Shown here: positions 2,857 through 54,056 of the stretch, piece after piece
How positions within the stretch are numbered: position 1 is the stretch's first letter
How the letters are laid out: every line of letters starts with the position of its first letter
Assembly (NCBI GenBank): GCA_964004625.1
Contig: CAXFOB010000042.1
Location: 8,791 to 72,790 of the forward strand
DNA from: an uncultured Flavobacteriales bacterium
GTDB lineage: Bacteria; Bacteroidota; Bacteroidia; Flavobacteriales; BACL11
Reading direction: 5' to 3'
Length of the DNA stretch: 64,000 nucleotides
Position numbers and translations under genes: made by a program
The notes under the pieces: generated by a model
What the model was told of the DNA's origin: nothing
What the model saw: the letters and a program-made list of their open reading frames with translations, nothing else
Database searches by the model: none

Positions 2857-2857
2857 A

Positions 2858-3634: not shown

Positions 3635-3654
3635 GGTTAAATTATTAATGAGAG

Positions 3655-3662
3655 CAAATATA
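3655..3662 (-). promoter_or_regulatory. Bacteroidota-type -7 promoter box (TATATTTG on minus strand) upstream of wza
   Basis: Plus strand reads CAAATATA, which is TAnnTTTG on the minus strand. It lies 20 nt upstream of the wza ATG (3634). Confidence 0.4.
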
Positions 3663-3876
3663 CAAAAGCAAAAGGTAAAAAACTTTCTAATTAAAAATTT
3701 CTAATTTTTCTGGTATAATTTTGAAACTAATGGTAGTCTAACGACATTCGTTTGGCCCATCTATCTTTTCTGTTGAGATTAGCAGTAATTTGTCAATCAT
3801 TATCCCCGTTGAGGTAATACTTACTTTATTTTTAGGGAATTATATCGTAAAACTTATTGTAATTTGTTAGATTAAT

Positions 3877-4770: not shown

Positions 4771-5527
4771 CTTTAAAGTTTATAATACTTTCAGAAATTT
4801 TAGAATACATGACCTGGAATTCTTTATGGTTTTTTAATTGCTTTAAATGATCTTCCATCACTTTTTTATCTTCTCTGAAGGCTGGACCAGTTTGTGTATC
4901 TTTTGGGGAATTGTTTTTTATTTTCTGAAAAGTATTTTCAATTAATGGTTTTAATAAATTAAAATCCAAATTATTTTTTTTCATTATATCTTCAGAAATG
5001 GCAAGTAAATGATTACTAAAGTTACACGCAAAAACAGCTGCAATATGTAGCTTTTTTCTTTGTTCAGAGTTTATTTTGTGTATAGATGTAGTAAGTGAGT
5101 TTGCAATCTCTATTAAATCACTTTCTAAAGAAGGATTATTTGACTCTATACAAATTGGTAAGTTTTCAAAATCCATTTCAATTTCTTTACTAAAGGTTTG
5201 CAGTGGGTAGAATACTCCATATTTTTTTTTGTTAGAAAAAACATCTATCCCTATACATCCTGAAGTATGAACTATTGGAGTTTCTTTATTAGTAATTAAA
5301 TGAACAGTTTCTTTTATAAAATCATCTTTTACAGCAATCATAATCAAATCTGTAGGTTGTAAATCATTAAGGTTTGTTGTGAAGTTACAATCTAATTTCA
5401 ACGCTAATTCCCTTGCAGATGTCTCAGTTTTACTCCAAATCTCAACAATTTCAAACCCTTTATCTTTTAACTTACTAGATAGAATACTAGCTACATTTCC
5501 AGATCCTATAAATGTGATTTTTTTCAT
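4760..5527 (-). CDS. Rossmann-fold NAD(P)-binding protein with DUF2520-type C-terminal domain
   Basis: 255 aa with an N-terminal dinucleotide-binding motif, ITFIGSGNVAS. It overlaps the downstream UbiA-like gene by 11 nt. Confidence 0.6.
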   Translation of the reverse strand: MKKITFIGSGNVASILSSKLKDKGFEIVEIWSKTETSARELALKLDCNFTTNLNDLQPTDLIMIAVKDDFIKETVHLITNKETPIVHTSGCIGIDVFSNKKKYGVFYPLQTFSKEIEMDFENLPICIESNNPSLESDLIEIANSLTTSIHKINSEQRKKLHIAAVFACNFSNHLLAISEDIMKKNNLDFNLLKPLIENTFQKIKNNSPKDTQTGPAFREDKKVMEDHLKQLKNHKEFQVMYSKISESIINFKDDN

Positions 5528-5569
5528 TTATTAAATATAATATTATTAATATATTCAAAAACAAAGTTA

Positions 5570-5577
5570 TAATTTTG
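5570..5577 (+). promoter_or_regulatory. -7 promoter box TAATTTTG upstream of ccsBA
   Basis: Exact TAnnTTTG match, 16 nt before the ATG at 5594. Confidence 0.45.
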
Positions 5578-5593
5578 CAAAAACAAAATAACT

Positions 5594-8500
5594 ATGATAA
5601 ACAGAATTGTTAATTTTTTATCTTCAATGAGGTTTGCGACCTTGTTATTATTAGTTTTTGCATTTTCCATTGGATACGCTACATTTGTAGAAAATGATTT
5701 TGGATCATCCTCATCCAAATCACTTATCTATAATACATGGTGGTTCGAATTTATCCTTATTTCATTAGCAACTACTCTTGTATTGAATGTATTAAAGTTT
5801 AATCTATTCAGAAAAGAAAAATTAGCCACACTTATATACCATCTTTCTTTTATCATTATTCTTCTTGGAGCAGGTATTACCAGATATACTGGTTACGAAG
5901 GAATGATGAGAATTAAAGAAGGTGAGAAGTCCAACACATTCTTATCAGATGACACCTATTTACAAGTAAGGGTTAATGATGGAAATCAACAATTTAAATA
6001 CGATAAAAAATTACATTTATCAGGTATTACAAAACAGTTTGATGATATTGCAGTTCTGAAACATTTATTCTCTAATTATTTTTCTATTTCCAACTCAGAT
6101 TTAAAACAAGGATTTACTATAACATATACTGACTTTTTAGCTAATGCGGCAGACTCTTCAGTAAAATCTGAGATCTCAGGAATCAGATTGTCTTCATCTG
6201 GAGACTCAGACAAAAAAGGAACTCAGTTATCAGTTAATGATTTTATAAATAAAGAAATTAAAATTGGAGAGTTCGAGGAGTTTAAAGGAATAAACTTTAC
6301 TGTAAACAACCAAAAAGAATCCTCTGTAAACTTTTTTATAAAGGATAATTCTGTAAAATGTTTTTCTGATTTTGATATTTCTATTATAAGTATGCCACCT
6401 AACGGAGAACCTCCTATAATTTATGAAAAAGGTACCGAATTTGACTTAAATAAAATGTCCTTATTAACCATTAATGACAAGAGATATATGTTTAGTGATT
6501 TTTCTTTTAATGAAGATCAAGTAATCTATTCGACTTCTAATAATATGGATAATACAGGTAAAAATGAGACCAGGTCAAATGATGCATTAATTTTAGATGT
6601 AAAAGTAGGAGAAAAATCTAAAAATATAACTTTAAAAGGAAGAAAGGGGATGTATCCAAATAGTACGGAATTCAGCATTGATGAACTTAATTTTGAGTTA
6701 ACTTATGGTCCTAAATTCTTTACAACACCATTTTTTATACATTTAAATGATTTTCAGTTAGAAAAATATCCAGGGTCTAATAGTCCATCTTCTTTTGCTT
6801 CAGAAGTAGAAGTCATTGATGGAGACACAAGATTTCCTTACAGAATATTTATGAATAATGTCTTAGATTATAAAGGGCATAGATTTTTTCAATCTTCTTA
6901 CGACCCTGATGAAAGTGGAACCATATTATCTGTAAATCATGATTGGTGGGGGACCTTAGTTAGTTATATAGGATATGGACTTTTAATGTTAGGAATGATA
7001 ACAATATTTTTCTTTAAAAACACAAGGTTTAAAATATTAACTAAAAATTTGAAAAAAATTAAATCTACATCTTTATTAGTGTTTTTGGTTTTATCATCTA
7101 TTAGTGTGTCCGCTCAATCTGATCAAACACAAGAAGAATTATTAGAAAGATATAAGGTGAGTTCTGTTCACGCTAGTAATGCAGATGACCTTTTAATTCA
7201 AAATGATGGTAGAATCAAACCTCTTTCTACTTTTTCATCAGAATTAATTCGAAAGATTACTAGAAAAGAGAAATTATACGGACAGAACTCTACTCAAATC
7301 TACTTAGGAATTATTAGTTTTCCACAACTTTGGGATAGTATTCCTTTGATAAGAGTACAACACAAACAATTATTAAAAGAATTAAATTCTGAAGAAGAAC
7401 TGGTTTCCTTTTATAACTTTTTTAACTCAGAAAATGGACATTATATCTTTCAAGAAAAGGTACGAATCACAAATGGAAAAGCTGATAAGGATAAAAGTAA
7501 ATACGATAAAGAATTATTAAAAGTAACTGAGAGACTGAACATTTTATACTCAATTATCAATACAAAAAGTTATAATTCTAATTTGAATGTATTTCCTAAT
7601 CAAGATAGTAATAATACCAAATGGGTTGGTAATTTAGACGTCCCACATCCATCAGGGGACTCAATCATATATTCAAACTTATTAAATTATTATCTAGGAA
7701 GTATTCAGTCTTCGATAATTTCTGAAAACTGGAGTTTTAGTGATACCTTACTAAGGGTTATAAAGAAATATCAGAGAGAAAATGGAAATAATATTATTCA
7801 ATCTGATTACAAAATTGATTTAGAGATTTTATACAATAAAGTAGACATATTTACTCAATTATTTATGTATTACTTTTTTGTAGGATTATTAATGCTTGTG
7901 TTATTAATTGTTCAAATGTTTCATGATAAACGATGGATATTTTATACAATTAAAATATTAAGGTACTTAGTTATTACAGGTTGGATATTTCATACCTTAG
8001 GACTTATTGCTAGATGGATAATATCTAATCACGCTCCTTGGACTAATGGTTATGAGGCTATGATATATACTGTATGGGCTACAATGTTTGCAGGAATAAT
8101 ATTTGCAAGAAAATCTAATTTAACTTTAGCAACTACAACATCTGTTTCTTCTTTACTACTATTATTTGCTTTTGTAAGTTATCTTGACCCAACAATTACC
8201 AATGTTGTTCCAGTATTAAATTCCTATTGGTTAATGATTCATGTTTCAATAATAGTTGCTTCCTACGGATTTTTAATATTAGGAGGATTTTTAGGTTTAT
8301 TATCATTAATGTTGATGATTTTTAAGAACAATAGAAATAAAAAAGTATTGGATTTGAAAATTTCTGAGTTAACCATAATTAACGAGAAGACTCTAACAAT
8401 AGGAATATATATGCTTACAATAGGAACATTCTTAGGTGGTATTTGGGCAAATGAATCATGGGGTAGATATTGGGGATGGGACCCTAAAGAAACTTGGGCT

Positions 8501-8764
8501 TTGGTCAGTATTTTAGTCTATGCCTTTATTCTTCATATGAGGTTTGTACCAGCACTAAAGGGTAAATACATTTTTAATGTAGCTTCTGTTTTTGCAGTAT
8601 ACTCTGTTTTAATGACTTATTTTGGAGTAAATTATTTACTTTCTGGATTACATTCATATGCAGCAGGGGATACAGTAGAGATTCCTAATGCGGTGTGGAT
8701 TTCAGTAGGTATTGTAGTTATTATCTCTATTTTAGCTAAGTTAAAGAACAATACTAATAAATAG
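5594..8764 (+). CDS. ccsBA: Fused system II cytochrome c biogenesis protein CcsBA (ResB-like N-terminus plus CcsA-like C-terminus)
   Basis: 1056 aa. The N-terminal half has ResB-like TM segments and a large periplasmic loop. The C-terminal half is polytopic and carries the Trp-rich WWD-type motif WANESWGRYWGWDPKETWA and conserved His residues. Confidence 0.8.
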   Translation: MINRIVNFLSSMRFATLLLLVFAFSIGYATFVENDFGSSSSKSLIYNTWWFEFILISLATTLVLNVLKFNLFRKEKLATLIYHLSFIIILLGAGITRYTGYEGMMRIKEGEKSNTFLSDDTYLQVRVNDGNQQFKYDKKLHLSGITKQFDDIAVLKHLFSNYFSISNSDLKQGFTITYTDFLANAADSSVKSEISGIRLSSSGDSDKKGTQLSVNDFINKEIKIGEFEEFKGINFTVNNQKESSVNFFIKDNSVKCFSDFDISIISMPPNGEPPIIYEKGTEFDLNKMSLLTINDKRYMFSDFSFNEDQVIYSTSNNMDNTGKNETRSNDALILDVKVGEKSKNITLKGRKGMYPNSTEFSIDELNFELTYGPKFFTTPFFIHLNDFQLEKYPGSNSPSSFASEVEVIDGDTRFPYRIFMNNVLDYKGHRFFQSSYDPDESGTILSVNHDWWGTLVSYIGYGLLMLGMITIFFFKNTRFKILTKNLKKIKSTSLLVFLVLSSISVSAQSDQTQEELLERYKVSSVHASNADDLLIQNDGRIKPLSTFSSELIRKITRKEKLYGQNSTQIYLGIISFPQLWDSIPLIRVQHKQLLKELNSEEELVSFYNFFNSENGHYIFQEKVRITNGKADKDKSKYDKELLKVTERLNILYSIINTKSYNSNLNVFPNQDSNNTKWVGNLDVPHPSGDSIIYSNLLNYYLGSIQSSIISENWSFSDTLLRVIKKYQRENGNNIIQSDYKIDLEILYNKVDIFTQLFMYYFFVGLLMLVLLIVQMFHDKRWIFYTIKILRYLVITGWIFHTLGLIARWIISNHAPWTNGYEAMIYTVWATMFAGIIFARKSNLTLATTTSVSSLLLLFAFVSYLDPTITNVVPVLNSYWLMIHVSIIVASYGFLILGGFLGLLSLMLMIFKNNRNKKVLDLKISELTIINEKTLTIGIYMLTIGTFLGGIWANESWGRYWGWDPKETWALVSILVYAFILHMRFVPALKGKYIFNVASVFAVYSVLMTYFGVNYLLSGLHSYAAGDTVEIPNAVWISVGIVVIISILAKLKNNTNK

Positions 8765-36475: not shown

Positions 36476-39400
36476 CTATCTAAGAAGAATAATATTTCCT
36501 ACTAAATATTGTCGCTTATAGTTATTTGGAAGGGAATAAGAAGCTATAAATACGTATGTTCCTTGAACTGCCTCTTCGCCGTTTTCTAAAATACCATTCC
36601 ACTCTCCCATTCTATAATATTCTTGCAACGGATTATTATTATTACATAAATTATTATCTGTAACATTATCCATAAAAACTATGTCCTCAGATTCATGTAT
36701 CATATCACCACCCCACCTCGTATAGACTTTAAGATTAAAATCTATAAAATCACCTAAACCACTCAAATAAAATTTATCGTTACAATTATCTCCATTAGGA
36801 CTAAAAGAGTTTGGAGCAAATAATTTATTATCTGAAATAATGCATACGGATGAAGAAAAAGTATCTGAACACATTCCATTGTTTACCAACACTAGATTTA
36901 CATTAAAATTACCTGTATCTATATAGACATGTGTAGGATTTTCATCAGGTTTAAATGATACTACAGTACCATCTCCAAAATCCCAATAACTATTAGATGA
37001 AAGTTCAGATTCGGTATAAATAGAAGCATTTAAGAATTGGAGTTCTCCATTTAATACAGACACGCAAGAAGTAGTATTTGTAAAAAAGGAAGCAAATAGA
37101 TTCTCATAACCAGGTATGGTGATAGTGTCCGATACAATACATCCTGTATTATTATCTTGTACATCTACTCTATAATCTCTACTAACAGACGCATTTATAC
37201 TGTCTGAATACTGAATAGGATTAGTATTCCATTCATAAGAATAATTTCCTGTTGGAGAGGCAGAAACTACAGCATGTCCAATCTCACCATAACACTGTTT
37301 CTCTGATGTACTAAAGGCTAAATCAAAGGTAGGTAATACAACTATATCAATTGTATCTAAATTATCATCTGAACATCCATCCGAAGATGTAACAATATAG
37401 CTAGTACTTACACTTGGAGAAACTAATTGATTAAAACTAGTAGTTGTATTATTATTCCAACTAAATGAATAGTTAGATGATCCCCCACTAACTGTTACAC
37501 CAATAGAACTTAATTCACCTAAACAAATAGTATCATTTGTAACATAAGTTTCACTAACGAATTTGTTATCTACAAATACAACAGTATCAATAGATTGAGA
37601 ACAATCACCTAATCCGTACGTATAGGATATATTGTGATATCCAGTACCTGCAATTGATGGATTAAAACTAGTTCCACTTACTCCATTACCACTCAACACC
37701 CCCCCTGTTGGACTGACATTAATATTTATCATAGTATCCTTAAAACAATAATAATTCTCAAACCCACTAAAACTTAAAACTGGATCGTTATAAATTGTAA
37801 TGGTGAAAGTATCTACACACCCACTAGTATTCATGTATCCGACCAAATGATTCCCTACTGAAAGAGAAGAGGGAGAAAACAAACCTGTACTATTATTCAC
37901 AATACCACTACCTCCCCATACTCCTCCACTAGGATTTACATCCAAAAATACATCAGGAGAAGAAGAACAAATAAGCGTGTCTATTAAAAAAGAAGGAGGT
38001 AATACCTTAATTATAAAATTATCAATACATGAGTTTGCTGTATAACTAATCAAATGATTTCCTATTCCAGCTACTACTGGGTTAAACTCACCTGGATAAT
38101 TTGGAGAAACAATACCACTCCCAGACCAAAGACCATTCCAAGGTGTTCTAGGGACAAGATTCATATCTAATACTTGAATACCTCCATTAGAGCAAGTAAA
38201 AAGTGTATCATCAAAAATATCTGTCTCGACAACATTATAAATAGCAGTATCTGTACATCCATCAAAGGTATAAGTTACTGTAGTTTGACCCAAACCTAAA
38301 GAGGGGTTAAATGTTCCAAGGGTGGAATTTGTTATATGAGAACCAGACCAAATACCTGCTAATGGACTTCCAAAAATATTAAACACTGACTGTGATGGAC
38401 ACACAATTTGATCAGGCCCTGCATCAATCTCTTTTACATAAATATTTACATAATCCTCACAACCCTCTATTAAATAAGTTAAGTTATGAATTCCATGTGA
38501 AGCTATATTTGTAAAAAAGTCTCCATCCGGACTAACAGGACCAGATAAAATAGATAATTTATCAACCGCAACATCAGACTGCCAATCTCCTGTTTTTACC
38601 CTCAGTCTAACCAAAACCTCAGGAGAGTTGTAATTTGTTAAATCAATTACAGCTTCATTCCATTGATTTCCCAAATCACCATCTTTCCAAAAAACATTCC
38701 AATTCCAAGTTAATCCATTATCTGTAGAAACATCTACCGCAAAAGTGCCTTGACCAGCTCCATACTTATGATACCAAAAATAAAGGGCAGGATTATTATA
38801 TTCAGATAAATTAATACAAGGACTTATAATAGAAGAGGTTTTATCCGGATAATTAGAACCTGAAGCCTCAGTATAAATATAACTTAATCCTTGAAATGCC
38901 GATTGAGGACCTGTTGATGAAGAAGGAGTACCTCCATTATTTAAAAACCAATCAAAATCATTATTTGGATCTGGTGTCCACCCTGCAAATCCACCCTCCC
39001 ACCCCTCTTGATGAGGAAAAATAGAAATTGGATTAGGACAAACACTTGGTTGTTGAGGATTATCTTGAGGCACTGTCCAAACTCCATTCGTAGGAGAAAA
39101 AGTAAGAGAATAATTACCTGAGTTTTGACATACCGTATCATCAGCCTGTACACTTACTCCATCCACATTTATAAGTAAAGTATCTGAACATCCATTTGGT
39201 AAGGTATAAATTGCAGGAATAATTGTAGTTGCACTACCAACATTAATATTTCCATTTGATTGAATCCCATTTCCACTCCAAATACCTCCAGGGGTGGTTA
39301 AAGATGTGTTAAGATTAAAAATTGGTGAATTAGGGCATGCCGATATATCTTCTCCTGCATACACCTCTAAAATTGTTACATCTACATTATCTACACATCC

Positions 39401-40552
39401 AGAAAAACCATAATCTACAGTATAGACACCTGGAATTAAACCACTTGCACTAAACACTCCATTAGAACTACTAACAATACCTGTTCCAGACCAATTACCC
39501 CCTAGAGGATTGGCAGATAAAACAACAGATCCCTCGTTCTGACAGATAGAGATATTATTTTGAGTAACTGGAGGAAGAACAACATTAATGGTAATAGTAT
39601 CTGATGTTGTTGAAGAAGTTCCATTATCTGAAACTGTAACTATGTACTGTGTAGTGGTTGTAGGACAAACTGATTGTACTCCTGGGCTATTTATCCAAAC
39701 AGGATTCCAACTATAACTATAAGATGTAGAATCTCCTCCATCAACATTTACATATAAATCTACACAATCTCCCAAACATATTGTTGTACTATTTGCTGTT
39801 AAATTAACTTGTAAAGGGCAATCATCTACAAAAAGTTGATAACTAGAAGAAAGATTCCACATGTTTTCACAATCATCAGAAAAGAAGCTTTCAAAATATA
39901 TGTTGTACAGTCCACTTTCATTTAATCCTGGAAACAAATTCAATTGTATTGTATTGGTGGAATCGTTAGTGCAATTTACAGGAAAAGCAACTACATTCTG
40001 ATTGATTTGTCCAACAACATTTAAAATAGCTGTAGAAACAGAATCACAATGAATGAGACGATCCAATTCTATATTTAAAACAGTAGTACTACAAGTTGGA
40101 GTGATCGGCAAACTAATAACTGGTGGAGATGGAATAGACACATCTGTTTCCCAGGATAATTCAAACCCTTCTTCAGCAATATTTTGGTCCGAAACAAATC
40201 CTATGGTAATACATCCTGAGGAAACAATCTGAGGAGGAAGATTGGTACCAGAATATAATCCAATTACCGGAAAAGTATTATCCGGACCATCATATATAGT
40301 AACATAATCATTAATAGGTTCGGTAGAAAAAACACTAAAAGTAATGGTAATTTGTAGAGCATTTGGAGGACAAATAGTAAAATGAAAATTTTCATCATGT
40401 GAGTACCAAGTAGGATTTAATGCATTTGACTCACTATCTTTTAAAACACCTTCACATTCATAAACAATTAAGTCTTGCATATTGTACTGCACTTGAGCAA
40501 CAATAATATTACTCAATGACATGTAAAAAATTACAAACATATACTTTCTCAT
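36476..40552 (-). CDS. Giant T9SS type B cargo / putative adhesin: CUB-like, SprB-like and GGxWSGxGI repeats, MAM-like, PKD-like, gliding-motility C-terminal domain
   Basis: 1358 aa with a signal peptide (IIVAQ). Domain calls by residue:
- aa ~33-134 are CUB-like (CEGVL...DYVTIYDGPDNTFPVIGLYSG...FVSDQNIAEEGFELSW).
- aa ~505-669 are MAM-like (NDFDWFLNNGGTPSSSTGPQSAFQGLSYIYTEASG...LYFWYHKYGAGQGTFAVDVS...DVAVDKLSI).
- aa ~1150-1238 are PKD-like (WDFGDGT...PTHVY).
- aa ~1243-1358 match the TIGR04131-type CTD (APNSFSPNGDNCNDKF...KVYTRWGG...WNG...GTYVF...GNIILLR). Confidence 0.85.
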   Translation of the reverse strand: MRKYMFVIFYMSLSNIIVAQVQYNMQDLIVYECEGVLKDSESNALNPTWYSHDENFHFTICPPNALQITITFSVFSTEPINDYVTIYDGPDNTFPVIGLYSGTNLPPQIVSSGCITIGFVSDQNIAEEGFELSWETDVSIPSPPVISLPITPTCSTTVLNIELDRLIHCDSVSTAILNVVGQINQNVVAFPVNCTNDSTNTIQLNLFPGLNESGLYNIYFESFFSDDCENMWNLSSSYQLFVDDCPLQVNLTANSTTICLGDCVDLYVNVDGGDSTSYSYSWNPVWINSPGVQSVCPTTTTQYIVTVSDNGTSSTTSDTITINVVLPPVTQNNISICQNEGSVVLSANPLGGNWSGTGIVSSSNGVFSASGLIPGVYTVDYGFSGCVDNVDVTILEVYAGEDISACPNSPIFNLNTSLTTPGGIWSGNGIQSNGNINVGSATTIIPAIYTLPNGCSDTLLINVDGVSVQADDTVCQNSGNYSLTFSPTNGVWTVPQDNPQQPSVCPNPISIFPHQEGWEGGFAGWTPDPNNDFDWFLNNGGTPSSSTGPQSAFQGLSYIYTEASGSNYPDKTSSIISPCINLSEYNNPALYFWYHKYGAGQGTFAVDVSTDNGLTWNWNVFWKDGDLGNQWNEAVIDLTNYNSPEVLVRLRVKTGDWQSDVAVDKLSILSGPVSPDGDFFTNIASHGIHNLTYLIEGCEDYVNIYVKEIDAGPDQIVCPSQSVFNIFGSPLAGIWSGSHITNSTLGTFNPSLGLGQTTVTYTFDGCTDTAIYNVVETDIFDDTLFTCSNGGIQVLDMNLVPRTPWNGLWSGSGIVSPNYPGEFNPVVAGIGNHLISYTANSCIDNFIIKVLPPSFLIDTLICSSSPDVFLDVNPSGGVWGGSGIVNNSTGLFSPSSLSVGNHLVGYMNTSGCVDTFTITIYNDPVLSFSGFENYYCFKDTMININVSPTGGVLSGNGVSGTSFNPSIAGTGYHNISYTYGLGDCSQSIDTVVFVDNKFVSETYVTNDTICLGELSSIGVTVSGGSSNYSFSWNNNTTTSFNQLVSPSVSTSYIVTSSDGCSDDNLDTIDIVVLPTFDLAFSTSEKQCYGEIGHAVVSASPTGNYSYEWNTNPIQYSDSINASVSRDYRVDVQDNNTGCIVSDTITIPGYENLFASFFTNTTSCVSVLNGELQFLNASIYTESELSSNSYWDFGDGTVVSFKPDENPTHVYIDTGNFNVNLVLVNNGMCSDTFSSSVCIISDNKLFAPNSFSPNGDNCNDKFYLSGLGDFIDFNLKVYTRWGGDMIHESEDIVFMDNVTDNNLCNNNNPLQEYYRMGEWNGILENGEEAVQGTYVFIASYSLPNNYKRQYLVGNIILLR

Positions 40553-40554
40553 AC

Positions 40555-40983
40555 CTATCTATTTACTGTAATCAATGGAGTAGAAATTTCATTACTCCAA
40601 TTTCCTTCCCTGTCTTGTATTCGTATAGTATAGAATAAAGTTTCCAAATTTCCACTTCCTAATAAAAAAGGAGCATCAATTTTCAGGTTAATACTTCCTT
40701 TTATGAAAAGTTGATTATCTGGAGGATTTAAAGGAATTAAATGATAATAATCTGCAATTTCAAGCCTACTATCTTTTACTTCCATAGATAAATAATCCGG
40801 ATCATAAAAACCTATAAATCCTTCTGAATGTTCGTATTCTATTTCTAAAATAATATTTTCCTGAAATTCAATCAATTCTGTAGGATTAGTAGAAATTAAA
40901 GAAAGATGAAAGACCGAATCATCTTCTTTATTACATGAAAGAAATAAACAAGTATAAATTAATATATACAGTGTATTTCTCAT
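40555..40983 (-). CDS. Small lipoprotein of unknown function (operon member F)
   Basis: 142 aa with a lipobox, LFLSC. I recognise no motif. Its start shares 1 nt with the upstream stop (TAATG), and there is a 2-nt gap to the giant gene. Confidence 0.6.
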   Translation of the reverse strand: MRNTLYILIYTCLFLSCNKEDDSVFHLSLISTNPTELIEFQENIILEIEYEHSEGFIGFYDPDYLSMEVKDSRLEIADYYHLIPLNPPDNQLFIKGSINLKIDAPFLLGSGNLETLFYTIRIQDREGNWSNEISTPLITVNR

Positions 40984-41957
40984 TATAAAATTTCAAATGT
41001 AAAGTGTTTTATATATTGGTAGGAACTACCATTATTCGGAATTTCAGTTATGTCATTCACATCATCTTTTATATATATTTTAAAAAATACTTCATCACCA
41101 GAAACTAAATCAGAAATATCATGAGTAATATTATGATAGTATTCCACTTGGTTCGAAGCATAATATCCCGCTTCTAAAATTGGGGTATTTACCACATTTA
41201 AACTAAGTTCTGGCTGTATGTGGAATTGAAATAAACTTTTGGAAAATTTCACTTTATTATATGTTAAGTTATTAGATGTGATATTATCATCCACTACAGA
41301 AAACCAAATATCTAAAGATTGTGTACCTGCAGGAACCTGAATAGTTCCTCTACCAATTCTAGGAAGTGCAATTGAAGTACCAGAAATAAACGCTACTACT
41401 CCTTGCATTTCTGGCTTGTTGTTTGGTTGAACAGCGGGATTCCCAAACATATCTTTCGACCCCTCTTCAATCCAAGTTTTTATATTAGCTATATGATCCT
41501 CCTTTTCGAGATGCCAGACATGTTCCTGACTTGGGTCATACACAATATCTGCTGTTAGAGGCATTACCTGAGAATTAGGGTCAAAAGTAGCACTTCCGTC
41601 AGAATTAGAAAGTAAACGAGCATATAACACGGACTCATCAATATCCCCTGCTTTTACTCTAAATTGATAATCTCCACTAGCATTATTCTTTATAACAGGT
41701 TGATAGACCAAGGTATTATAAGAACTTTCTATAGTTCTAAAATCTGGTTCAAAACTACCATCATGACAACCTGAATTTGCGCAATGAGGAACAAAAATAT
41801 TGTTATAAAGAGCAGCAAAATTTGTTGGGTCAGAAAAATAAGAAGTAGAATCCTCTAATGGAGGAAGTAAATCAGGATTATCGTATGGATTTATTGTTTC
41901 TTTCTGACAAGAAATACAAAAAAAAAGAAATAAAATATACAACCCAATAACTCTCAT
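40983..41957 (-). CDS. Lipoprotein with planctomycete-cytochrome-C-like (PSCyt-like) domain carrying CX4CH (operon member E)
   Basis: 324 aa with a lipobox, FFCISC. aa ~45-168 read IFVPHCANSGCHDG...FRVKAGDIDESVLYARLL...VMPL...IANIKTWIEEGS. This is colinear with the C..CH / G(D/K)..(E)S.L..R(L/I) / MP / L..WI..GA blocks of the PSCyt1-type domain. The C-terminal half looks like a beta-sandwich. Confidence 0.65.
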   Translation of the reverse strand: MRVIGLYILFLFFCISCQKETINPYDNPDLLPPLEDSTSYFSDPTNFAALYNNIFVPHCANSGCHDGSFEPDFRTIESSYNTLVYQPVIKNNASGDYQFRVKAGDIDESVLYARLLSNSDGSATFDPNSQVMPLTADIVYDPSQEHVWHLEKEDHIANIKTWIEEGSKDMFGNPAVQPNNKPEMQGVVAFISGTSIALPRIGRGTIQVPAGTQSLDIWFSVVDDNITSNNLTYNKVKFSKSLFQFHIQPELSLNVVNTPILEAGYYASNQVEYYHNITHDISDLVSGDEVFFKIYIKDDVNDITEIPNNGSSYQYIKHFTFEIL

Positions 41958-41958
41958 C

Positions 41959-43290
41959 TTATATCAAGTCAAAAAAGGAATTATTATTATATACATATCC
42001 AGAATTAATCACTTCTTGTTTAAATCCTAAAATTTCCGCAATAGTTGGGGTAATATTTACAATATCACCCACCCCATTAGTTTCACTACCAATCGTCAAG
42101 TTACTATCTATTCCTGGCCCAGCCATCAAATTAAATATTCTTCTGGCATTAGAGTCTGAATGGTCATAACCGAAAAATGCATTCGCATCCTTTATGTTAT
42201 TTGGTTCTAGATTTCTACCATGTTCTGGAGCTACTATAATAGAGGTATTACCTGCCATTCCAGGAATATTGTTTTGTATATAATCCCATAAGTGTCCTAC
42301 CGCATGATCTGCGGAATGTAAAGATTGTAAATATGAAGTAAAATTAGAATGACAACCATCTACATTAGACAAATACACCACTGTCAATGTTGGTTTAAAT
42401 CTTTTCATCACCTCACAAGCGTAACCTATGGTTTGTCCATCATTATTAGCAGCTGTTGGAGGAAAGGCAATAGTTCCATTTTCCTTTTTAACAAACATGT
42501 CTTTTACAAATTGTTTTATTTCTGCTTTTTCTTCAACTGTATTCCCTATACTAGGAAGTGCATTCCCTTGAGAATACCAAACATTATCTAAAAAATATTT
42601 CATCTTATACATAGGGTCTAGCTCATCATCCGGATGATATATTTTTGCATTTTTCAGGTGTTTTTCCCCATCCTCACCAAATGTAATAGTTGGAGCCAAG
42701 AAATTAGCCCCATACTGAGAACCGTAATTGTCATGCTCACTATAATCCAACAATGGAATAGAATTTCCAATGCCATTACCTACAAACCAACATTTTGTTG
42801 CTTTTTCTCCAGTATGTCTTCTTAAATATTCAAATATAGTTGGCATCAAAGGCTTTGCTCTTAAACCTTGCGAATACATGTAATTACCAGTCAGCAGTGT
42901 ATTTACTCCAGCATAATGCCCAACAGTAGAAGCATTTACCTCTCTAAACAATGTTCCCTGTTGTTGAAGGGTTTGAGATAATAATTTAGGAATAGGTATG
43001 TTTTCGTTATTTGCATTATTCGTTCCATAAACTAATTTATCAGTAGGAACTGAACCATCTAATAGATTATACATTATATTTCCTGCAGAAGGATAGTCCT
43101 GACTTCCATCCAGATACTGCTGTAATACAGATTCTTGCTGACGAACTCCTCCAGCAAAGGCTACAAATACCACATGATCTGCCATTCTACTTCCACTAGA
43201 AGCAAACAACCTTCCACTTGGTAAAATAAAAGGGACTGAAAGAGCCGCTCCTCCAATAGCAGTTTTTTTTATAAATTCTCTTCTTTTCAT
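41959..43290 (-). CDS. Tat-exported DUF1501-like protein (alkaline phosphatase/sulfatase superfamily) (operon member D)
   Basis: I start it at the ATG at 43290, giving MKRREFIKKTAIGGAALSVPF, a twin-arginine signal. The ORF-track start at 43347 would bury that signal. The blocks VVFVAFAGGV..., PEHGRN, GYDHSD and LMAGPGI occur in the same order as the DUF1501 conserved blocks I recall. Confidence 0.6.
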   Translation of the reverse strand: MKRREFIKKTAIGGAALSVPFILPSGRLFASSGSRMADHVVFVAFAGGVRQQESVLQQYLDGSQDYPSAGNIMYNLLDGSVPTDKLVYGTNNANNENIPIPKLLSQTLQQQGTLFREVNASTVGHYAGVNTLLTGNYMYSQGLRAKPLMPTIFEYLRRHTGEKATKCWFVGNGIGNSIPLLDYSEHDNYGSQYGANFLAPTITFGEDGEKHLKNAKIYHPDDELDPMYKMKYFLDNVWYSQGNALPSIGNTVEEKAEIKQFVKDMFVKKENGTIAFPPTAANNDGQTIGYACEVMKRFKPTLTVVYLSNVDGCHSNFTSYLQSLHSADHAVGHLWDYIQNNIPGMAGNTSIIVAPEHGRNLEPNNIKDANAFFGYDHSDSNARRIFNLMAGPGIDSNLTIGSETNGVGDIVNITPTIAEILGFKQEVINSGYVYNNNSFFDLI

Positions 43291-43291
43291 T

Positions 43292-43768
43292 TTAATAGTA
43301 CTGGTATTCGTTAGACAAAGCAAAAGCCATATAAACCATTTCTGCACTTACATTCGGATGAGATTCAAAGAAAGATATAAAAAACTCCCTTTCCGCCTCA
43401 GTTACATCTCTAACAAAAAATCTTTTGTAGGTATCCTCTATAAACAGATCCAAATTATCTCTCATAAGAGAATCAGAAGGAATAATAACCCCATTTTTAT
43501 TCATAAAATTAGAGAAAACAATCTCATGGGCAACTTCCTTATCACCTATAGACTGTATACATCTCGATATTTCGAACAACTCATTTGCAGAAAGCGCTTC
43601 CTGAAATAAATTTGCATATAAAATAGATATGAACTGATTACTACTTTTTAACTTATCTTTATTTGCATTATATGATGTTGCGTTTACCTCATTTAACTCA
43701 TATACATCATCTTTTTTACAAGATGATAAAATCAAAAATACAGATAATATATATAGTAGTTTTTTCAT
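43292..43768 (-). CDS. Small lipoprotein with DUF4214/DUF1549-like helical modules (operon member C)
   Basis: I start it at MKKLLYILSVFLILSSC, which contains a lipobox. Modules are ILYANLFQEALSANELFEI and TYKRFFVRDVTEAEREFFISFF. The C-terminus is ALSNEYQYY. Confidence 0.55.
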   Translation of the reverse strand: MKKLLYILSVFLILSSCKKDDVYELNEVNATSYNANKDKLKSSNQFISILYANLFQEALSANELFEISRCIQSIGDKEVAHEIVFSNFMNKNGVIIPSDSLMRDNLDLFIEDTYKRFFVRDVTEAEREFFISFFESHPNVSAEMVYMAFALSNEYQYY

Positions 43769-43772
43769 TTTT

Positions 43773-44684
43773 TTAATCAAAATGTGCGTATTCATCTGAA
43801 CTCAAAATTATTCTTTGAATTCTCTGGTAATCATTATACATTACTAAATCATTCATTAGTTCGTCTCTTTCTTGTGCATTTGCCTCTCTACCCAAAAAAG
43901 TAATGTAAGTCCAATTTACTAATCCCTCAAAAAACTCATCTGAATTACAAATTATAGTAGTAACATCATATTTACAATTGCCTGAAGATCCCATCAAAAT
44001 CTGAGTAGAATTATCATCAATCATTAATTTACACTCATTAAACTCATAATTTGTTGGATATCTGAAAAGTAGATTGTCAAAAATAGCGTTTATATAATTA
44101 AATGTATTCATATTAATGTCATCATAAATAGAATTATAAATCATCCTCCTGTGAACTTCAGAAACAGAAATAACACCGTTCCTGTATTGATTCTTAGACT
44201 TTAAGATATCGTTTAGTTTATTATACTCTAACAACCTTTTATATGCATTAATCATATTTCCAGCAATGGAATCTTTTTCGTACTCAAACCACCAATTCGA
44301 ATTTTGGTAATTGATATAAGAGTTTGATGCTCCCTCTATTAATCTTACCTTTACCAAATCATAAAACCTATGAAAATACGCCTGATTATAAGAGGAATCA
44401 CCCTCTATAAAAGTAGTGTCGAACTGAAGTTTATAAAGTAACTGATTCCTACTTTCAATTGTCACTTCATTATTCCTTAGAAACTGAACATCCTCTATCA
44501 TTTCATCATCTAGAGGCTCCCTACCCAACAAATCAATATAACATCTGTTTACATAGTTTTCTAGAAGTAAAGTAGGTATCTCACCATAATAGGGAGCATT
44601 ATTATTCGGTATAATATTATCCTCTTTCTTACACGAGCTTATAAGAAAAACTATACAAATAATATATACTAATTTTCTAGCCAT
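43773..44684 (-). CDS. Lipoprotein with repeated DUF4214/DUF1549-like LGRE modules (operon member B)
   Basis: 303 aa with a lipobox, FLISSC. Modules are CYIDLLGREPLDDEMIEDVQFL, IFDNLLFRYPTNYEFNECKLMI and TYITFLGREANAQERDELMNDL. The S-x-E-[FY] tails are ICNSDEFFEGL and the C-terminal ILSSDEYAHFD. Confidence 0.55.
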   Translation of the reverse strand: MARKLVYIICIVFLISSCKKEDNIIPNNNAPYYGEIPTLLLENYVNRCYIDLLGREPLDDEMIEDVQFLRNNEVTIESRNQLLYKLQFDTTFIEGDSSYNQAYFHRFYDLVKVRLIEGASNSYINYQNSNWWFEYEKDSIAGNMINAYKRLLEYNKLNDILKSKNQYRNGVISVSEVHRRMIYNSIYDDINMNTFNYINAIFDNLLFRYPTNYEFNECKLMIDDNSTQILMGSSGNCKYDVTTIICNSDEFFEGLVNWTYITFLGREANAQERDELMNDLVMYNDYQRIQRIILSSDEYAHFD

Positions 44685-44687
44685 TCA

Positions 44688-45863
44688 TTAATCAAAAATC
44701 ACTTTTCTATTTACAGAACCCTTACTGTTTTCTATCTTCAAAATATAACTTCCTTTACCTATATCTTCAGAATTTATATAAGTAGAATTATACAATCCAC
44801 CCCTTTCTATTACTAATTTACCTTCAACTGAATACAATGAAATATTAAACATATCATTTTCAGGAAAATCTATACGCATCCCACCCCTTGTAGGATTAGG
44901 ATAAATTTCAATTCTAGAAAAAACTTCAGAATAAACACCAGTAGCACAAGAATCTACAAACACTTCTATTTCTACCCTAGTTTCACATCCATTACTATCT
45001 AAAGCCTCACATACATAAATGAAATCTTGAGTTGGAGTAATTTCAATTCTATCTTGATCTTGATGTAATGGATTGCCTGTATTCCAATAATAATTAGATA
45101 ATCCTGGCGTCAATTCTATAACTAAAGTATCTCCTAAACAAATAATTGCAGGATTAGGAGCTGTATATGCAATTAATATTGGTTCTGGAATAACTTCTAC
45201 ATGCATAGTATCTGTAGCAACGCAACCTGTATCATTTGTGTATGAAAGAACATAATCTCCAGTAAGAGAAACCCAGATTTCATGATTAGTACTTCCTGTA
45301 TTCCACAAATAAGCACCATTTATATCATACACTGTTGGTTGTAATTGAACTGAATCTCCTTCACAAAATGTTGTTGAACCACTTGATGTAAGTTCTACAA
45401 AACAAGTTGTTGAAGATGTAGTGCAAGGCAGCCAACCTCCTGGCATTCCATTAGAAACAGCTGGAGTCCATCCTACTCCAGCGCAAATTGCAACACATGA
45501 GTTGGGATACATTACTCCATCACAACCACAAACTGGCATGTAAATCATAAGACATGGACAAATAGTAGTTGTATCAGGAATACAATTTTCGCAAATAGTA
45601 GTATCGCAACCACTTACTAAATCTGTTATAGTTACACACCATCCAGAATATATTTGAGTTTGATTTGCACCTGTAATACCATTGTTCCATACGTAATCAT
45701 ACATACTGATTCCATTTACTGTAGCGTTCATCATTGCAGGTGAAACCGCATAATCTAAATATACACTCCCTCCAGTTAAGTTACATGGAGTTATTTGGGA
45801 ATTTGCATTGAAAAATGATCCAAGAAAGATTATAGGGAAAAATAATTTGTAAAATTTTTTCAT
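44688..45863 (-). CDS. T9SS type A cargo protein with Kazal-like Cys-rich domain (operon member A)
   Basis: 391 aa with a signal peptide. aa ~94-127, CIPDTTTICPCLMIYMPVCGCDGVMYPNSCVAICAG, fits the Kazal core PVCG-x-DG-x-x-Y-x-N-x-C. Ig-like repeats follow. The C-terminus IEIYPNPTRGGMRIDF...GSYILKIENSKGSVNRKVIFD matches the Por secretion tail (TIGR04183 type). Confidence 0.75.
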   Translation of the reverse strand: MKKFYKLFFPIIFLGSFFNANSQITPCNLTGGSVYLDYAVSPAMMNATVNGISMYDYVWNNGITGANQTQIYSGWCVTITDLVSGCDTTICENCIPDTTTICPCLMIYMPVCGCDGVMYPNSCVAICAGVGWTPAVSNGMPGGWLPCTTSSTTCFVELTSSGSTTFCEGDSVQLQPTVYDINGAYLWNTGSTNHEIWVSLTGDYVLSYTNDTGCVATDTMHVEVIPEPILIAYTAPNPAIICLGDTLVIELTPGLSNYYWNTGNPLHQDQDRIEITPTQDFIYVCEALDSNGCETRVEIEVFVDSCATGVYSEVFSRIEIYPNPTRGGMRIDFPENDMFNISLYSVEGKLVIERGGLYNSTYINSEDIGKGSYILKIENSKGSVNRKVIFD

Positions 45864-51226: not shown

Positions 51227-52273
51227 TTATTTGAAATTCTGATATCTTTTATACTTTTTTTTGTTTTGATTGTGCTCTTTATTTGAAGATGTGAATTTAT
51301 GATATCCATCTCCATTACTTCCTGCACACATAAAATAATATTCATGTTGAGTCGCATTTAAAACAGCATCTATTGCATTTATACAAGGAATGCGAATAGG
51401 CCCTGGTGGAAGTCCCTTTGATTTATATGTATTATAAGGACTTTCAATATCTGTATGCTTATACAAAACTTGTTTTATTCCAAAATCTTTGTTTGCAAAC
51501 TTAACCGTGGGGTCTGCTTGTAAATAAGGAAAGTTTAATGGATTATTTAATCTATTTAAGTACAGACCAGCTATTATTGGTCTTTCATCTATTTTTTTAT
51601 CTTGTTCCTCCTCTACTATAGATGCTAATATTGAAACTTCAATTCTTGTTAATCCTAAGGAATCACACTTTAATTTCCTTTTGTCTGTCCAAAAAAATTC
51701 ATACTCTCTTTTCATCTTATTTAAAAAGGATGTTACAGATAGTCCTTTATACAATTGATACGTATTAGGTATAAAAAAAGAAGGTAATGTCTGTATATTT
51801 AAATCATTATCAGAAAGAAAAGAAGAAGTATCAAGATAAGAACTTAATTCTCCCCTTTCAAAACCTATAGAATCTTCTAATAAAACAATCATATCTTCTA
51901 TTAATCTTATATTTTCAGGTATATGTAGATTGAAAACTCTCTTGCTTGGAATCCTAAGAATATTAATTAAATCATTATTAGTATAACTATCTTTTAAATG
52001 AACAGTACCACATTTTATATTAGAATCAAACTTTTTAAGAGAAGACATAAATTTAAAAGACCAAACATTTCTCAAACTACCGTTTTCCTTAAGCAGCCTT
52101 ATCAAGTCATTCAAATTAATTCCTTCGTGAATTTCAATTTTAACATGTTCTGTCAATTCCGTTTTGACTTTAAAATTATGACTAATGAAAAGAGACCATA
52201 ACATATAAATTAATATGAAAAATACAGGAATTGTATATTTTATTTTACTTGAAAATAAGACAGTTTTAATCAT
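51227..52273 (-). CDS. mltG: Endolytic murein transglycosylase MltG (YceG-like)
   Basis: 348 aa with an N-terminal TM anchor. The C-terminal signature is SPYNTYKSKGLPPGPIRIP...YYFMCAGSNGDGYHKFTSSNKEH. Confidence 0.85.
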   Translation of the reverse strand: MIKTVLFSSKIKYTIPVFFILIYMLWSLFISHNFKVKTELTEHVKIEIHEGINLNDLIRLLKENGSLRNVWSFKFMSSLKKFDSNIKCGTVHLKDSYTNNDLINILRIPSKRVFNLHIPENIRLIEDMIVLLEDSIGFERGELSSYLDTSSFLSDNDLNIQTLPSFFIPNTYQLYKGLSVTSFLNKMKREYEFFWTDKRKLKCDSLGLTRIEVSILASIVEEEQDKKIDERPIIAGLYLNRLNNPLNFPYLQADPTVKFANKDFGIKQVLYKHTDIESPYNTYKSKGLPPGPIRIPCINAIDAVLNATQHEYYFMCAGSNGDGYHKFTSSNKEHNQNKKKYKRYQNFK

Positions 52274-54056
52274 GTTTTTTCTCTATTATATCTAAGTTAT
52301 CTTTTGCTAATTTGTAATCTGGATTTAGTTCTATTGCCTTTTTCATGTAATCTTTAGCTTTATGTAAATCCTTGTCTACATTTAAATAAATTAATCCCAA
52401 ATTATAATAAGCTTTATCAAAATTAGGATATAATTTTACCAAATCTAACAATCTGTTCCTTGCAATTTCAAATTTAGACATTTTTATCTCTAAAACTGCT
52501 GTTTTCAATTGGTAATCTAAATTAAAGGGGGAAAATTCTAAAGACTTTAAAAAATTATAATAGGCTTTTTCGTTAAAATTAAATTGAGAATAAGCATCTC
52601 CCACTCTAAGATACATAAGTCCTAAAATATTATTATTAAATGTGTTGTGAAAATCAACTAATTCAACACTTTCTGAAAATTTTATTAACTCTTTATACTG
52701 CTTTCTCAAATAGAAATATTGTATGAAGAAAGGAACAGATTCCTCCTTCTTAGATAGTTTCAGAAAACGTATTGCAGAGTCTAACAAAATTGAATTTTTA
52801 TCAAAACTTTCGTAATGTTTCAGATAAGCTTTTGCCTTACTTAAACTAGAGGGATTAGGATTATTAACGCAAACTAAAGATTGAAATTCTCCCTTTTTAT
52901 TATCTCTATGCTTTGGAATAGATATTTTATGATCAGTAATAGATACATGAGGGATATCGGTAGAAGATGATTTTGACATGTGACATGAAATACAATCTTT
53001 ATTATACTCTTTATCCTCACAAATCAAATGACAATCAGTACATTTACTATTAAAATACTCTCCAGGTAAAGAAGTTACACTTTTGTGTGGGTTATGACAA
53101 GAAATACAATTTACACCTCCTATTTTATAACAATCTGATTGTTGAAGCCTATCAACATGAGAAGCCATTATAAAAGATTCATCATTCTCAAACCTAGGTA
53201 CAAAAGTCTCCATAGTTTCAGATAGAGATGTTCCAGGTACAAAATCATTCCAGTTTTTTCCATTTTTCAAAACAGTAGTACCTTGTAGATGACACCTGCT
53301 ACATACATCAAACTGTAACTCCTTTTCTAATTTTGAAGGATTAACTATCGAATAGTCTACATACTTTGAGGTATCAATAATTATACCGGACATCTTTTCT
53401 TTTACATGAATTTCACCAGGTCCATGACACCTTTCACAATCTATCCCCTCTAAAACAGAATGATATTTATTTAAACTTTTATTTTCATACTTAGGATATG
53501 CATTATGACAACTCATACACTCCATTCCAATTTCCCTAGAAAAACGACTATTATTTCCGTTTTCATAACCGGGAGGTAAGTCTGCTCTTCTTTCTTGAGT
53601 ATAAAATGTATATGGCATTTGATGTAGATAACCATTAATTGAAAAGATATGAGAATTGGTATGATGTCCGGAACCAATAACATAATCTATCTTCTGAAGA
53701 AATTTATGAGAAGTATCTTTTCCTTCCATTCTAAATTCTAATAAATACAAGGAATCCTCTTTCCACAAAGGTTGATAAAATAAATCTTTTATGGTGTCAT
53801 AAATAAGAGGATTATTATTCTCATCTAAAACAGATTTAGTTTTTGTAGCAATAGAAAAAGACTTTCCCATTCCTGTTTGCATAAAGGAATTATAAATATC
53901 AAAATGACAAGTTTTACAAGTTTCTTTGCCTACATAGGAGACACTGTCATGATGATTTCTATAAATGTTGTTATTTACTTCATCTAATTCAGATACGGTA
54001 GAATTATTATTACAAGAAAAAAGAATTGAAAACAATAAAAGAAGCAGATATCTCAT
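52266..54056 (-). CDS. Heptaheme c-type cytochrome lipoprotein with C-terminal TPR domain
   Basis: 596 aa with a lipobox, ILFSC. I count seven CXXCH motifs: CKTCH, CMSCH, CERCH, CSRCH, CISCH, CTDCH and CISCH. TPR-like repeats fill the last ~200 aa. Confidence 0.8.
   Translation of the reverse strand: MRYLLLLLFSILFSCNNNSTVSELDEVNNNIYRNHHDSVSYVGKETCKTCHFDIYNSFMQTGMGKSFSIATKTKSVLDENNNPLIYDTIKDLFYQPLWKEDSLYLLEFRMEGKDTSHKFLQKIDYVIGSGHHTNSHIFSINGYLHQMPYTFYTQERRADLPPGYENGNNSRFSREIGMECMSCHNAYPKYENKSLNKYHSVLEGIDCERCHGPGEIHVKEKMSGIIIDTSKYVDYSIVNPSKLEKELQFDVCSRCHLQGTTVLKNGKNWNDFVPGTSLSETMETFVPRFENDESFIMASHVDRLQQSDCYKIGGVNCISCHNPHKSVTSLPGEYFNSKCTDCHLICEDKEYNKDCISCHMSKSSSTDIPHVSITDHKISIPKHRDNKKGEFQSLVCVNNPNPSSLSKAKAYLKHYESFDKNSILLDSAIRFLKLSKKEESVPFFIQYFYLRKQYKELIKFSESVELVDFHNTFNNNILGLMYLRVGDAYSQFNFNEKAYYNFLKSLEFSPFNLDYQLKTAVLEIKMSKFEIARNRLLDLVKLYPNFDKAYYNLGLIYLNVDKDLHKAKDYMKKAIELNPDYKLAKDNLDIIEKKHD

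Follow-up and report, generated by a model that had tools for sequence, protein, structure and literature searches.

A stretch of 64,000 nucleotides from an uncultured Flavobacteriales bacterium (contig CAXFOB010000042.1, positions 8,791 to 72,790; here called the window) encodes on its minus strand a lipoprotein of 324 amino acids whose N-terminal domain resembles the planctomycete cytochrome-like domain PSCyt1 (PF07635) but carries a CX4CH motif where PSCyt1 has CXXCH. The gene, designated gene E (40983..41957), lies in a group of six genes that recurs in Bacteroidota. Judged from sequence comparisons, gene E stands for a real, large and so far unannotated protein family with a fixed non-canonical motif and a conserved module around it. 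On balance we consider it probable that the gene E product is a lipid-anchored monoheme cytochrome with His/Met ligation, which would be matured by the system II cytochrome c maturase CcsBA and would act as the redox component of an envelope module of six proteins.

The open reading frame (ORF) of gene E is open over its full length. Read on the reverse strand, positions 41783..41763 have the sequence TGC GCA AAT TCA GGT TGT CAT and encode C59-A-N-S-G-C64-H65. The predicted signal peptide (41907..41957) ends in the lipobox cysteine Cys17, followed by Q-K-E, a partial version of the Bacteroidota surface-export signal; Cys17 was kept in at least 90% of 128 homologs. Both readings, the lipoprotein and the motif C-A-N-S-G-C-H, agree with a preliminary description of this DNA that was made from the sequence alone. 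Besides the lipidated Cys17, the mature product has only two cysteines, Cys59 and Cys64. They belong to a helical domain resembling PSCyt1 and class I cytochromes c (approximately residues 44-170; 41448..41828), assigned by profile alignment with hhalign, by a match to the protein FoxE and by predicted helices. Within this domain the CX4CH motif from Cys59 to His65 (41763..41783) is the putative covalent heme site with the proximal histidine, an assignment based on its invariance and its alignment on the CXXCH of PSCyt1. Met132-Pro133 (41559..41564) contains the putative distal ligand, and Trp162 (41472..41474) lies in the C-terminal helix, the WI--GA block, where it aligns with a near-invariant Trp of PSCyt1. 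The remainder of the protein is predicted to be an immunoglobulin-like (Ig-like) beta-sandwich (residues 181-324; 40986..41417). The blocks IFVPHCANSGCHDG, VKAGDIDESVLYARLL, QVMPL and IKTWIEEGS were all found in the product and coincided with the most conserved positions of the family, so that the PSCyt1 block order proposed earlier (C..CH, G.(D/E)S.L..R, MP, WI..GA) was borne out. Among all ORFs of the window with at least 110 codons CX4CH occurs only once, in DNA with a G+C content of 29.6%. It is the conservation of the motif across the family that gives it weight, not its being unique in the window.

Clustered at 90% identity the family comprises 891 clusters, and an exhaustive profile search gave 410 representatives at the 50% level; nearly all members are 300-330 amino acids long and of one common architecture. 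The motif was surveyed in the best 150 of the 410 representatives. One was uninformative, as it begins inside the motif and looks garbled; of the other 149, 148 possessed CX4CH with the consensus C-[AGSN]-x-x-[GA]-C-H, one possessed CX5CH and none CXXCH. Met-Pro was present downstream of the motif in 146 of 146 representatives. The preliminary description had asked whether CX4CH is conserved or alternates with CXXCH in homologs. Alternation can be rejected, since the spacing is fixed, and a chance occurrence of the motif is ruled out by the same conservation. The protein with CX5CH (P0251, 299 amino acids) has the sequence C-G-S-Q-G-A-C-H and keeps the downstream RMP and WIEDGA blocks; it shows some tolerance in the length of the motif loop.

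An alignment of 128 family members, sharing 23-77% identity with the gene E product and with a mean column identity of 27%, contained only nine invariant columns: C59, C64, H65, G67, P71, S109, M132, P133 and W162. The two cysteines and the histidine, on whose conservation among orthologs the heme reading had been made to depend, are thus among them. P103, R114, G166 and A167 were conserved in at least 90% of the members. Position -4 relative to Cys59 was occupied by Phe in 104 and by Leu in 24 of the 128 sequences, the query having Phe55. The residue at position -4 of class I cytochromes c, which is aromatic or hydrophobic, packs on an aromatic residue of the C-terminal helix, the classic example being Phe10 and Tyr97 of the mitochondrial protein. 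Phe55 and Trp162 may well form the equivalent packing pair in the gene E product.

Relatives of E were found in 527 genomes by a scan of one genome per species with a closer alignment of the N-domain. Among the best 80 of these 527 loci, for which the taxonomy was listed, all but two belonged to Bacteroidota-type bins (Flavobacteriales, Saprospiraceae, Chitinophagaceae, Sphingobacteriaceae and Weeksellaceae); the two exceptions were one bin labelled Ignavibacteriaceae and one that was unclassified. The Ignavibacteriaceae-labelled locus (L070, contig CAYNTN010000305.1) carries gene E together with its neighbours D and F, and could be due to mis-binning or to transfer outside the Bacteroidota. 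Every named member of the family is annotated as 'hypothetical protein', and we found no report of the family in the literature.

The relationship to PSCyt1 is detectable only from profile to profile because the hidden Markov model (HMM) of PF07635 matches no member of the E family: there was no match at E<=1 for the query, nor at E<=10 across 21 family members. A plain HMM search against PSCyt1, as suggested in the preliminary description, is therefore negative. To obtain genuine PSCyt1 sequences a protein database was baited with a consensus-like peptide, and only proteins with a precomputed PF07635 match were accepted. All 120 bait matches listed qualified, and all 120 carry CXXCH. Local alignment of the E N-domain profile with these 120 proteins by hhalign gave a probability of 97.5% (P=4.9e-12), compared with 0.1% and a P of about 0.6 for reversed-sequence controls. 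A second and independent PSCyt1 set came from metagenome loci of the type known from Planctomycetes, Verrucomicrobia and Chlamydiae (PVC), which encode giant proteins of about 1700 amino acids with the domain order PSCyt1-WD40-PSCyt2-PSD1. Here hhalign reported 95.8% (P=8e-9) over 96 columns, which correspond to residues 49-144 of the giants and span the Pfam-mapped PSCyt1 domain at 64-123. In the other direction, the HMM of the E family recovered true PSCyt1 ORFs in the PVC-type loci with E values of about 1e-6. At two loci (L084 and L085) the gene calls assign PSCyt1, PSCyt2 and PSD1 each to a short gene of its own, one next to the other, with 'stand-alone' PSCyt1 proteins of 160-170 amino acids; these are probably giants fragmented by frameshifts and not true single-domain proteins.

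The significant part of the hhalign signal sits in the C-terminal half of the domain (V-PG---S-L--R...MP...WI--GA). Extended and global alignments were collinear and placed Cys59 on the first Cys and Cys64-His65 on the CH of CXXCH, the CX4CH of E appearing as an insertion of two residues opposite a gap on the PSCyt1 side. The invariant residues of the genuine PSCyt1 set (C, C, H, G, R, D, S, M and P, with a near-invariant W) parallel the list obtained for E. By all these comparisons the N-domain of gene E is homologous to PSCyt1 yet lies beyond the boundary of the Pfam family. The earlier assignment to the PSCyt1 type thus stands as far as homology is concerned, whereas membership of PF07635 has to be dropped.

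A phmmer search of the PDB with the single gene E sequence retrieved nothing. The profile of the E family had one match only, FoxE (5mab, E=0.004), both heme domains of which align with it over V-PGD--S----L...RMP...WI--GAK. FoxE was also the top match of the genuine PSCyt1 profile (E=1.7e-5), in an alignment that extended from CXXCH through WI--GA; next came hydrazine synthase alpha, which we take to be a heme protein, matched in its C-terminal domain (5c2v, E=5.5e-4), and then weaker matches to class I cytochromes. The previous statement that heme binding is undemonstrated for PSCyt domains is hence not entirely correct, considering that the closest solved relatives of PSCyt1 are the diheme protein FoxE and hydrazine synthase alpha. 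FoxE is described as a c-type cytochrome with two hemes, and the distal ligands in a FoxE homolog are Met94 and Met208, which are 114 residues apart (PMC10654088). In the alignments, Met132-Pro133 of the gene E product falls on the M-P that is invariant in PSCyt1, and also on the RMP methionine of each of the two FoxE heme domains; these two methionines are at chain positions 148 and 262, likewise 114 residues apart. Because this spacing equals that of the reported distal methionines, we read the invariant Met132 as the probable counterpart of a distal heme ligand.

The structure of the gene E product was predicted by AlphaFold2 from the 128-sequence alignment, with a mean predicted local distance difference test score (pLDDT) of 93.6 and a predicted template modelling score (pTM) of 0.82. 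This diverse alignment was used in place of a shallow one of 21 sequences, for which the pLDDT of the N-domain was only 30-45. The N-domain model has helices at residues 47-59, 76-81, 110-116 and 147-164, with Cys59 as the very last residue of the first. A beta-sandwich of 8 or 9 strands, with a pLDDT of about 97, occupies residues 183-323. For this C-terminal domain, Foldseek found Ig-like, CBM21-like and E-set structures in the PDB, all as weak matches (E of at least 4e-3); no cytochromes were retrieved by the fold search with the gene E model.

How might such a protein work? After export by the Sec pathway and lipidation, the gene E product would be anchored in the outer membrane, its N-domain representing a divergent PSCyt1/FoxE branch of class-I-like cytochrome c. 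CcsBA, as the general system II maturase, would then act on it and link Cys59 and Cys64 covalently to one heme b. His65 would serve as the proximal and Met132 as the distal axial ligand, in a pocket closed by the N-terminal helix with Phe55 and the C-terminal helix with Trp162. The Ig-like half probably docks the protein to its partners, and the resulting monoheme cytochrome could be the redox partner within a module made up of the surface lipoproteins B, C and F together with the proteins D and G, with one of the latter two of which it might be physically associated. Such a module would be organised like the pairs of a PSCyt protein and a DUF1501 protein in PVC bacteria, and may be distantly related to them. 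Gene E has a signal peptide and a lipobox, and the ORF at 5594..8764 on the plus strand encodes a ResB-CcsA fusion of 1056 amino acids, i.e. CcsBA (Pfam Cytochrom_C_asm 1.7e-40, ResB 1.5e-17), the presumed heme lyase for E. CX4CH heme sites are also found in tetraheme cytochromes c3. The preliminary description had pointed out that CX4CH binds heme in some multiheme cytochromes, and heme 3 of hydrazine dehydrogenase is indeed a proven case of covalent attachment at this motif (PMC6469936).

Several observations speak against a cytochrome. Pfam and NCBIfam scans of the query and 20 homologs matched no cytochrome model, the sole signal of cytochrome type being TIGR03806 at the chance level of E=0.019. 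The motif-bearing half of the domain was not significant in hhalign when taken alone (P=0.095), which is why the equivalence of the Cys/His columns rests on collinearity. The literature search brought up no monoheme domain of the class I type that has CX4CH. Some non-standard heme motifs require a dedicated lyase, and at the 83 loci whose gene neighbourhood was compared no heme lyase, and hence no dedicated one, was adjacent to the module. Finally, the hydrolase superfamily of protein D has no obvious need of an electron donor, and the proposed redox role comes without an identified substrate.

The lack of a dedicated lyase in the module and of any cytochrome model that detects the family would also suit a scaffold that was derived from a cytochrome but has lost the heme. 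Cys59, Cys64, His65 and Met132 might then form a metal site, for example for Cu(I), Zn or Fe, or the two cysteines a redox-active CX4C disulfide beside a catalytic histidine, and E would be a metal chaperone, a sensor or a thiol-redox partner of protein D. The latter is a predicted metalloenzyme exported by the twin-arginine translocation (TAT) pathway. Two cysteines, a histidine and a methionine are a plausible ligand set for a soft metal, and the expansion by two residues as well as the single CX5CH depart from the CXXCH of all 120 PSCyt1 proteins. We nevertheless regard such a metal or thiol function as possible rather than likely. Conservation is not confined to the potential ligands; it includes residues of helix packing (Phe or Leu at -4, Trp162, the G67/P71 turn and PG--S-L--R) which are common to PSCyt1 and FoxE, as is expected if a large pocket for heme has been kept. 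Moreover, CX4CH is a proven covalent heme motif elsewhere.

A less probable alternative, raised already in the preliminary description, is a heme-free relic, in which the Cys/His pattern would be a functionless remnant in a structural or scaffolding module. The other proteins of the module are lipoproteins and an adhesin-like surface protein, and do suggest a structural complex at the surface. A remnant should decay, however; here none of C59, C64, H65 and M132-P133 varies among the 128 aligned members, some of which share only about 23% identity with the query and whose mean column identity is just 27%, and the motif is kept in all but one of the informative representatives. Because of this invariance of the cysteines, the histidine and Met-Pro we consider the relic distinctly unlikely. 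More improbable still would be an unrelated helical domain that resembles PSCyt1 by convergence or by accident. The empty direct searches of Pfam and NCBIfam, the motif half that is not significant alone and the fold search without cytochromes could be taken that way. Against this, two independent PSCyt1 sets gave P=5e-12 and P=8e-9 where reversed controls gave about 0.6, the family HMM finds true PSCyt1 ORFs at about 1e-6, the profiles of E and of PSCyt1 both match FoxE, and their invariant residues run parallel.

The cytochrome reading can be extended into a broader claim: that E is the first class-I-type monoheme cytochrome c with an obligate CX4CH, matured by CcsBA, exposed as a lipoprotein at or close to the cell surface and acting as the redox part of a widespread but unrecognised six-gene module, which would be a disaggregated counterpart of the PSCyt/DUF1501 systems of PVC bacteria. 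Taken as a whole, we offer this claim tentatively and think it rather doubtful.

Genes A to G are all on the minus strand. Gene B (43773..44684) encodes a lipoprotein of 303 amino acids with helical repeats containing the motif Y/F-x-R-x3-DL-x-GR-x-P-x3-E, and was present at 73 of the 83 loci. It is followed by gene C (43292..43795; 77 loci), encoding a lipoprotein of 167 amino acids with a DUF4214-like motif and the mature start CKKDD, and by gene D (41959..43290; 79 loci), whose product has a TAT signal (MKRREFIKK) and belongs to the alkaline-phosphatase superfamily. Downstream of gene E, which defines all 83 loci, are gene F (40555..40983; 74 loci), for a lipoprotein of 142 amino acids starting with CNKEDD, and gene G (36476..40552; 72 loci), for a surface protein of 1358 amino acids with CUB, MAM, PKD and SprB domains and the CHU_C signal of type B substrates of the type IX secretion system (T9SS). 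The neighbours B, C, D, F and G thus recur in 72-79 of the 83 loci across the Bacteroidota, and the gene order was the same at every locus where it was checked. Most of the absences appear to be due to contig ends. The junctions between the genes in the window range from -23 to +3 nucleotides, which indicates a single operon. A scan for Sigma-70 promoters and terminators gave counts at or below the shuffled expectation; the promoters of Bacteroidota are outside that model. No further neighbour recurred in distant loci.

Upstream of gene B and separated from it by 3 nucleotides is gene A (44688..45863), which according to Pfam and NCBIfam encodes a secreted protein of T9SS type A with a Kazal-like protease-inhibitor motif. 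It was present at only 28 of the 83 loci, those of close relatives among marine Flavobacteriales, and is a lineage-specific addition to the module. The homologs of gene G encode about 1200-1360 amino acids and retain the CUB...PKD...CHU_C layout at distant loci. Protein D is the best-conserved protein of the module. Its Pfam matches were Phosphodiest (2.7e-6) and Sulfatase (1e-4), and no significant relative of solved structure was found. The mechanically called ORF of gene D begins with GTG at 43347, but the twin-arginine motif and all orthologs point to the ATG at 43290, a start that leaves a gap of 1 nucleotide after gene C. Protein F had no match in Pfam. An ortholog of protein C matched DUF4214 (E=1.9e-4), and protein B gave weak Pfam matches to DUF4214, PBS-linker, PSCyt2 and PSD1.

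The N-termini of the lipoproteins bear on their location. In Bacteroidota a lipoprotein surface-export signal (LES) has been defined experimentally as C-X-K-(D/E)2 after the lipobox (PMC5080379). The mature starts C-N-K-E-D-D of F, C-K-K-D-D of C and C-K-K-E-D of B all fit this signal. The start of gene E, CQKET, fits in part; within the E family the full LES was present in 19 and a partial one in 46 of 121 proteins. Among the orthologs of F and C, 32 of 58 and 29 of 66, respectively, had the full signal. From the starts of B, C and F it would seem that some of the module's proteins are exposed at the cell surface.

The preliminary description had placed a heptaheme protein in the window in addition to CcsBA, and the Pfam matches and motifs agree with it on both. 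The ORF at 52266..54056 (minus strand) encodes 596 amino acids with seven CXXCH motifs (Pfam c554, c7 and paired-CXXCH) and C-terminal TPR repeats. It is set among housekeeping genes (YceG, a GNAT acetyltransferase, DapF and phosphoglucomutase) and not in a respiratory operon.

If the gene E product does carry heme, the range of covalent attachment would extend to CX4CH in a small class-I-like domain with His/Met ligation, and this would say something about how tolerant CcsBA, the system II lyase, is towards its substrates. The members of a family that is found in no fewer than 527 species-level genomes, and that now figure as hypothetical proteins, would be recognised as cytochromes that screens based on CXXCH or Pfam have missed. 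The PSCyt/DUF1501 systems, described in 2012, would gain a sister in the Bacteroidota with one domain per gene, well suited to genetics and biochemistry. Should the module be a counterpart of the PVC systems, a second and genetically more tractable phylum would be available for solving the function of PSCyt/DUF1501. Without heme, the family would plainly illustrate how a cytochrome c scaffold can be re-used for other chemistry of the Cys2-His-Met type.

It remains to compare E with the systems that resemble it. Heme 3 of hydrazine dehydrogenase has the same spacing of the attachment motif, but CX4CH sites of this kind belong to folds with several hemes, where ligation is bis-His or of another type. 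In E, by contrast, the class-I-like domain would bind one heme only, with His/Met ligation, and CX4CH would be its sole attachment site. FoxE, the iron oxidase of Rhodobacter ferrooxidans, shares the aligned blocks and has His/Met ligation (PMC10654088). It differs from E in having two CXXCH domains, between which the distal methionines are swapped, and in being a soluble periplasmic protein of an alphaproteobacterium, encoded in a foxEYZ operon. Its similarity to the E family profile is marginal, and the heme motif lies outside the aligned region.

With the PSCyt1 domains of PF07635 E shares the order of the blocks: the hydrophobic residue at -4, Cys...Cys-His-(x)-Gly, V-PG---S-L--R, M-P and WI--GA. 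As in PVC bacteria, the domain is extracytoplasmic and its gene adjoins one for an enzyme of the alkaline-phosphatase superfamily with a TAT signal. In contrast to the CXXCH of all 120 bait matches, E has CX4CH, and its heme motif is separated from the PG block by a longer insert, which includes a segment FEPDFRT-ES-Y-TLVY. While PSCyt1 forms the N-terminus of a giant protein with PSCyt2 and PSD1, E is a stand-alone lipoprotein with an Ig-like domain, and it occurs in Bacteroidota rather than in the PVC group.

At the level of the operon the comparison is with the DUF1501 proteins of PVC bacteria, which often have a TAT signal and are paired with PSCyt1/PSCyt2/PSD1 proteins (Kamneva et al. 2012, PMC3542564). 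The PVC-type metagenome loci (L086-L165) show this arrangement on dozens of contigs, with the giant of about 1700 amino acids (PSCyt1, a WD40 propeller, PSCyt2 and PSD1) directly upstream of DUF1501; at L136, for example, the giant is encoded at 800..5974 and DUF1501 at 6001..7464. Protein D is presumably of the same superfamily as DUF1501, and an alignment of the two brings the motifs VDxCH/WDHH, PEHGRN/GEFGRSP and YDHSD/GRDHW into register. Membership of D in DUF1501 is, however, unsupported: of 35 orthologs 16 matched Phosphodiest, 10 Sulfatase and none DUF1501 (PF07394), and the D family, when aligned by hhalign with 77 DUF1501 proteins, reached a non-significant probability of 2.9% (P=0.016). 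D is better described, as far as its sequence tells, as an orphan branch of the alkaline-phosphatase superfamily.

For the upstream lipoproteins the best hhalign result was obtained with B, which aligned with the start of PSCyt2 (P=1.8e-4, 48% probability). Orthologs of B and C had sub-threshold Pfam matches to PSCyt2 (E=0.019) and PSD1 (E=0.013-0.097). What B and C have in common with PSCyt2 is a short hairpin containing the repeat motif given above for gene B, which is also DUF4214-like. When HMMs of the B, C, D and F families were run on genuine PSCyt2, PSD1 and DUF1501 sequences, none of them gave a match, and hhalign of the F family against the PVC giants was negative too. The similarity of B and C to PSCyt2 and PSD1 is therefore only suggestive, and the link between the operons is an analogy with one solid homologous component, E, and not an established orthology of modules. 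The connection drawn earlier between this operon and the PSCyt/DUF1501 pairs survives in the PSCyt1-type domain beside a TAT-exported enzyme of the alkaline-phosphatase superfamily, but not in the assignment of that enzyme to DUF1501. Whereas the PVC module consists of two genes, the Bacteroidota module spreads the functions over six; PSCyt2 and PSD1 are represented in it at most by the short hairpin motif of B and C, and the cytochrome gene comes after that of the enzyme. Both systems, on the other hand, combine a cytochrome-like domain of the PSCyt1 type with a neighbouring TAT enzyme, and both include domains of the lectin or adhesin type.

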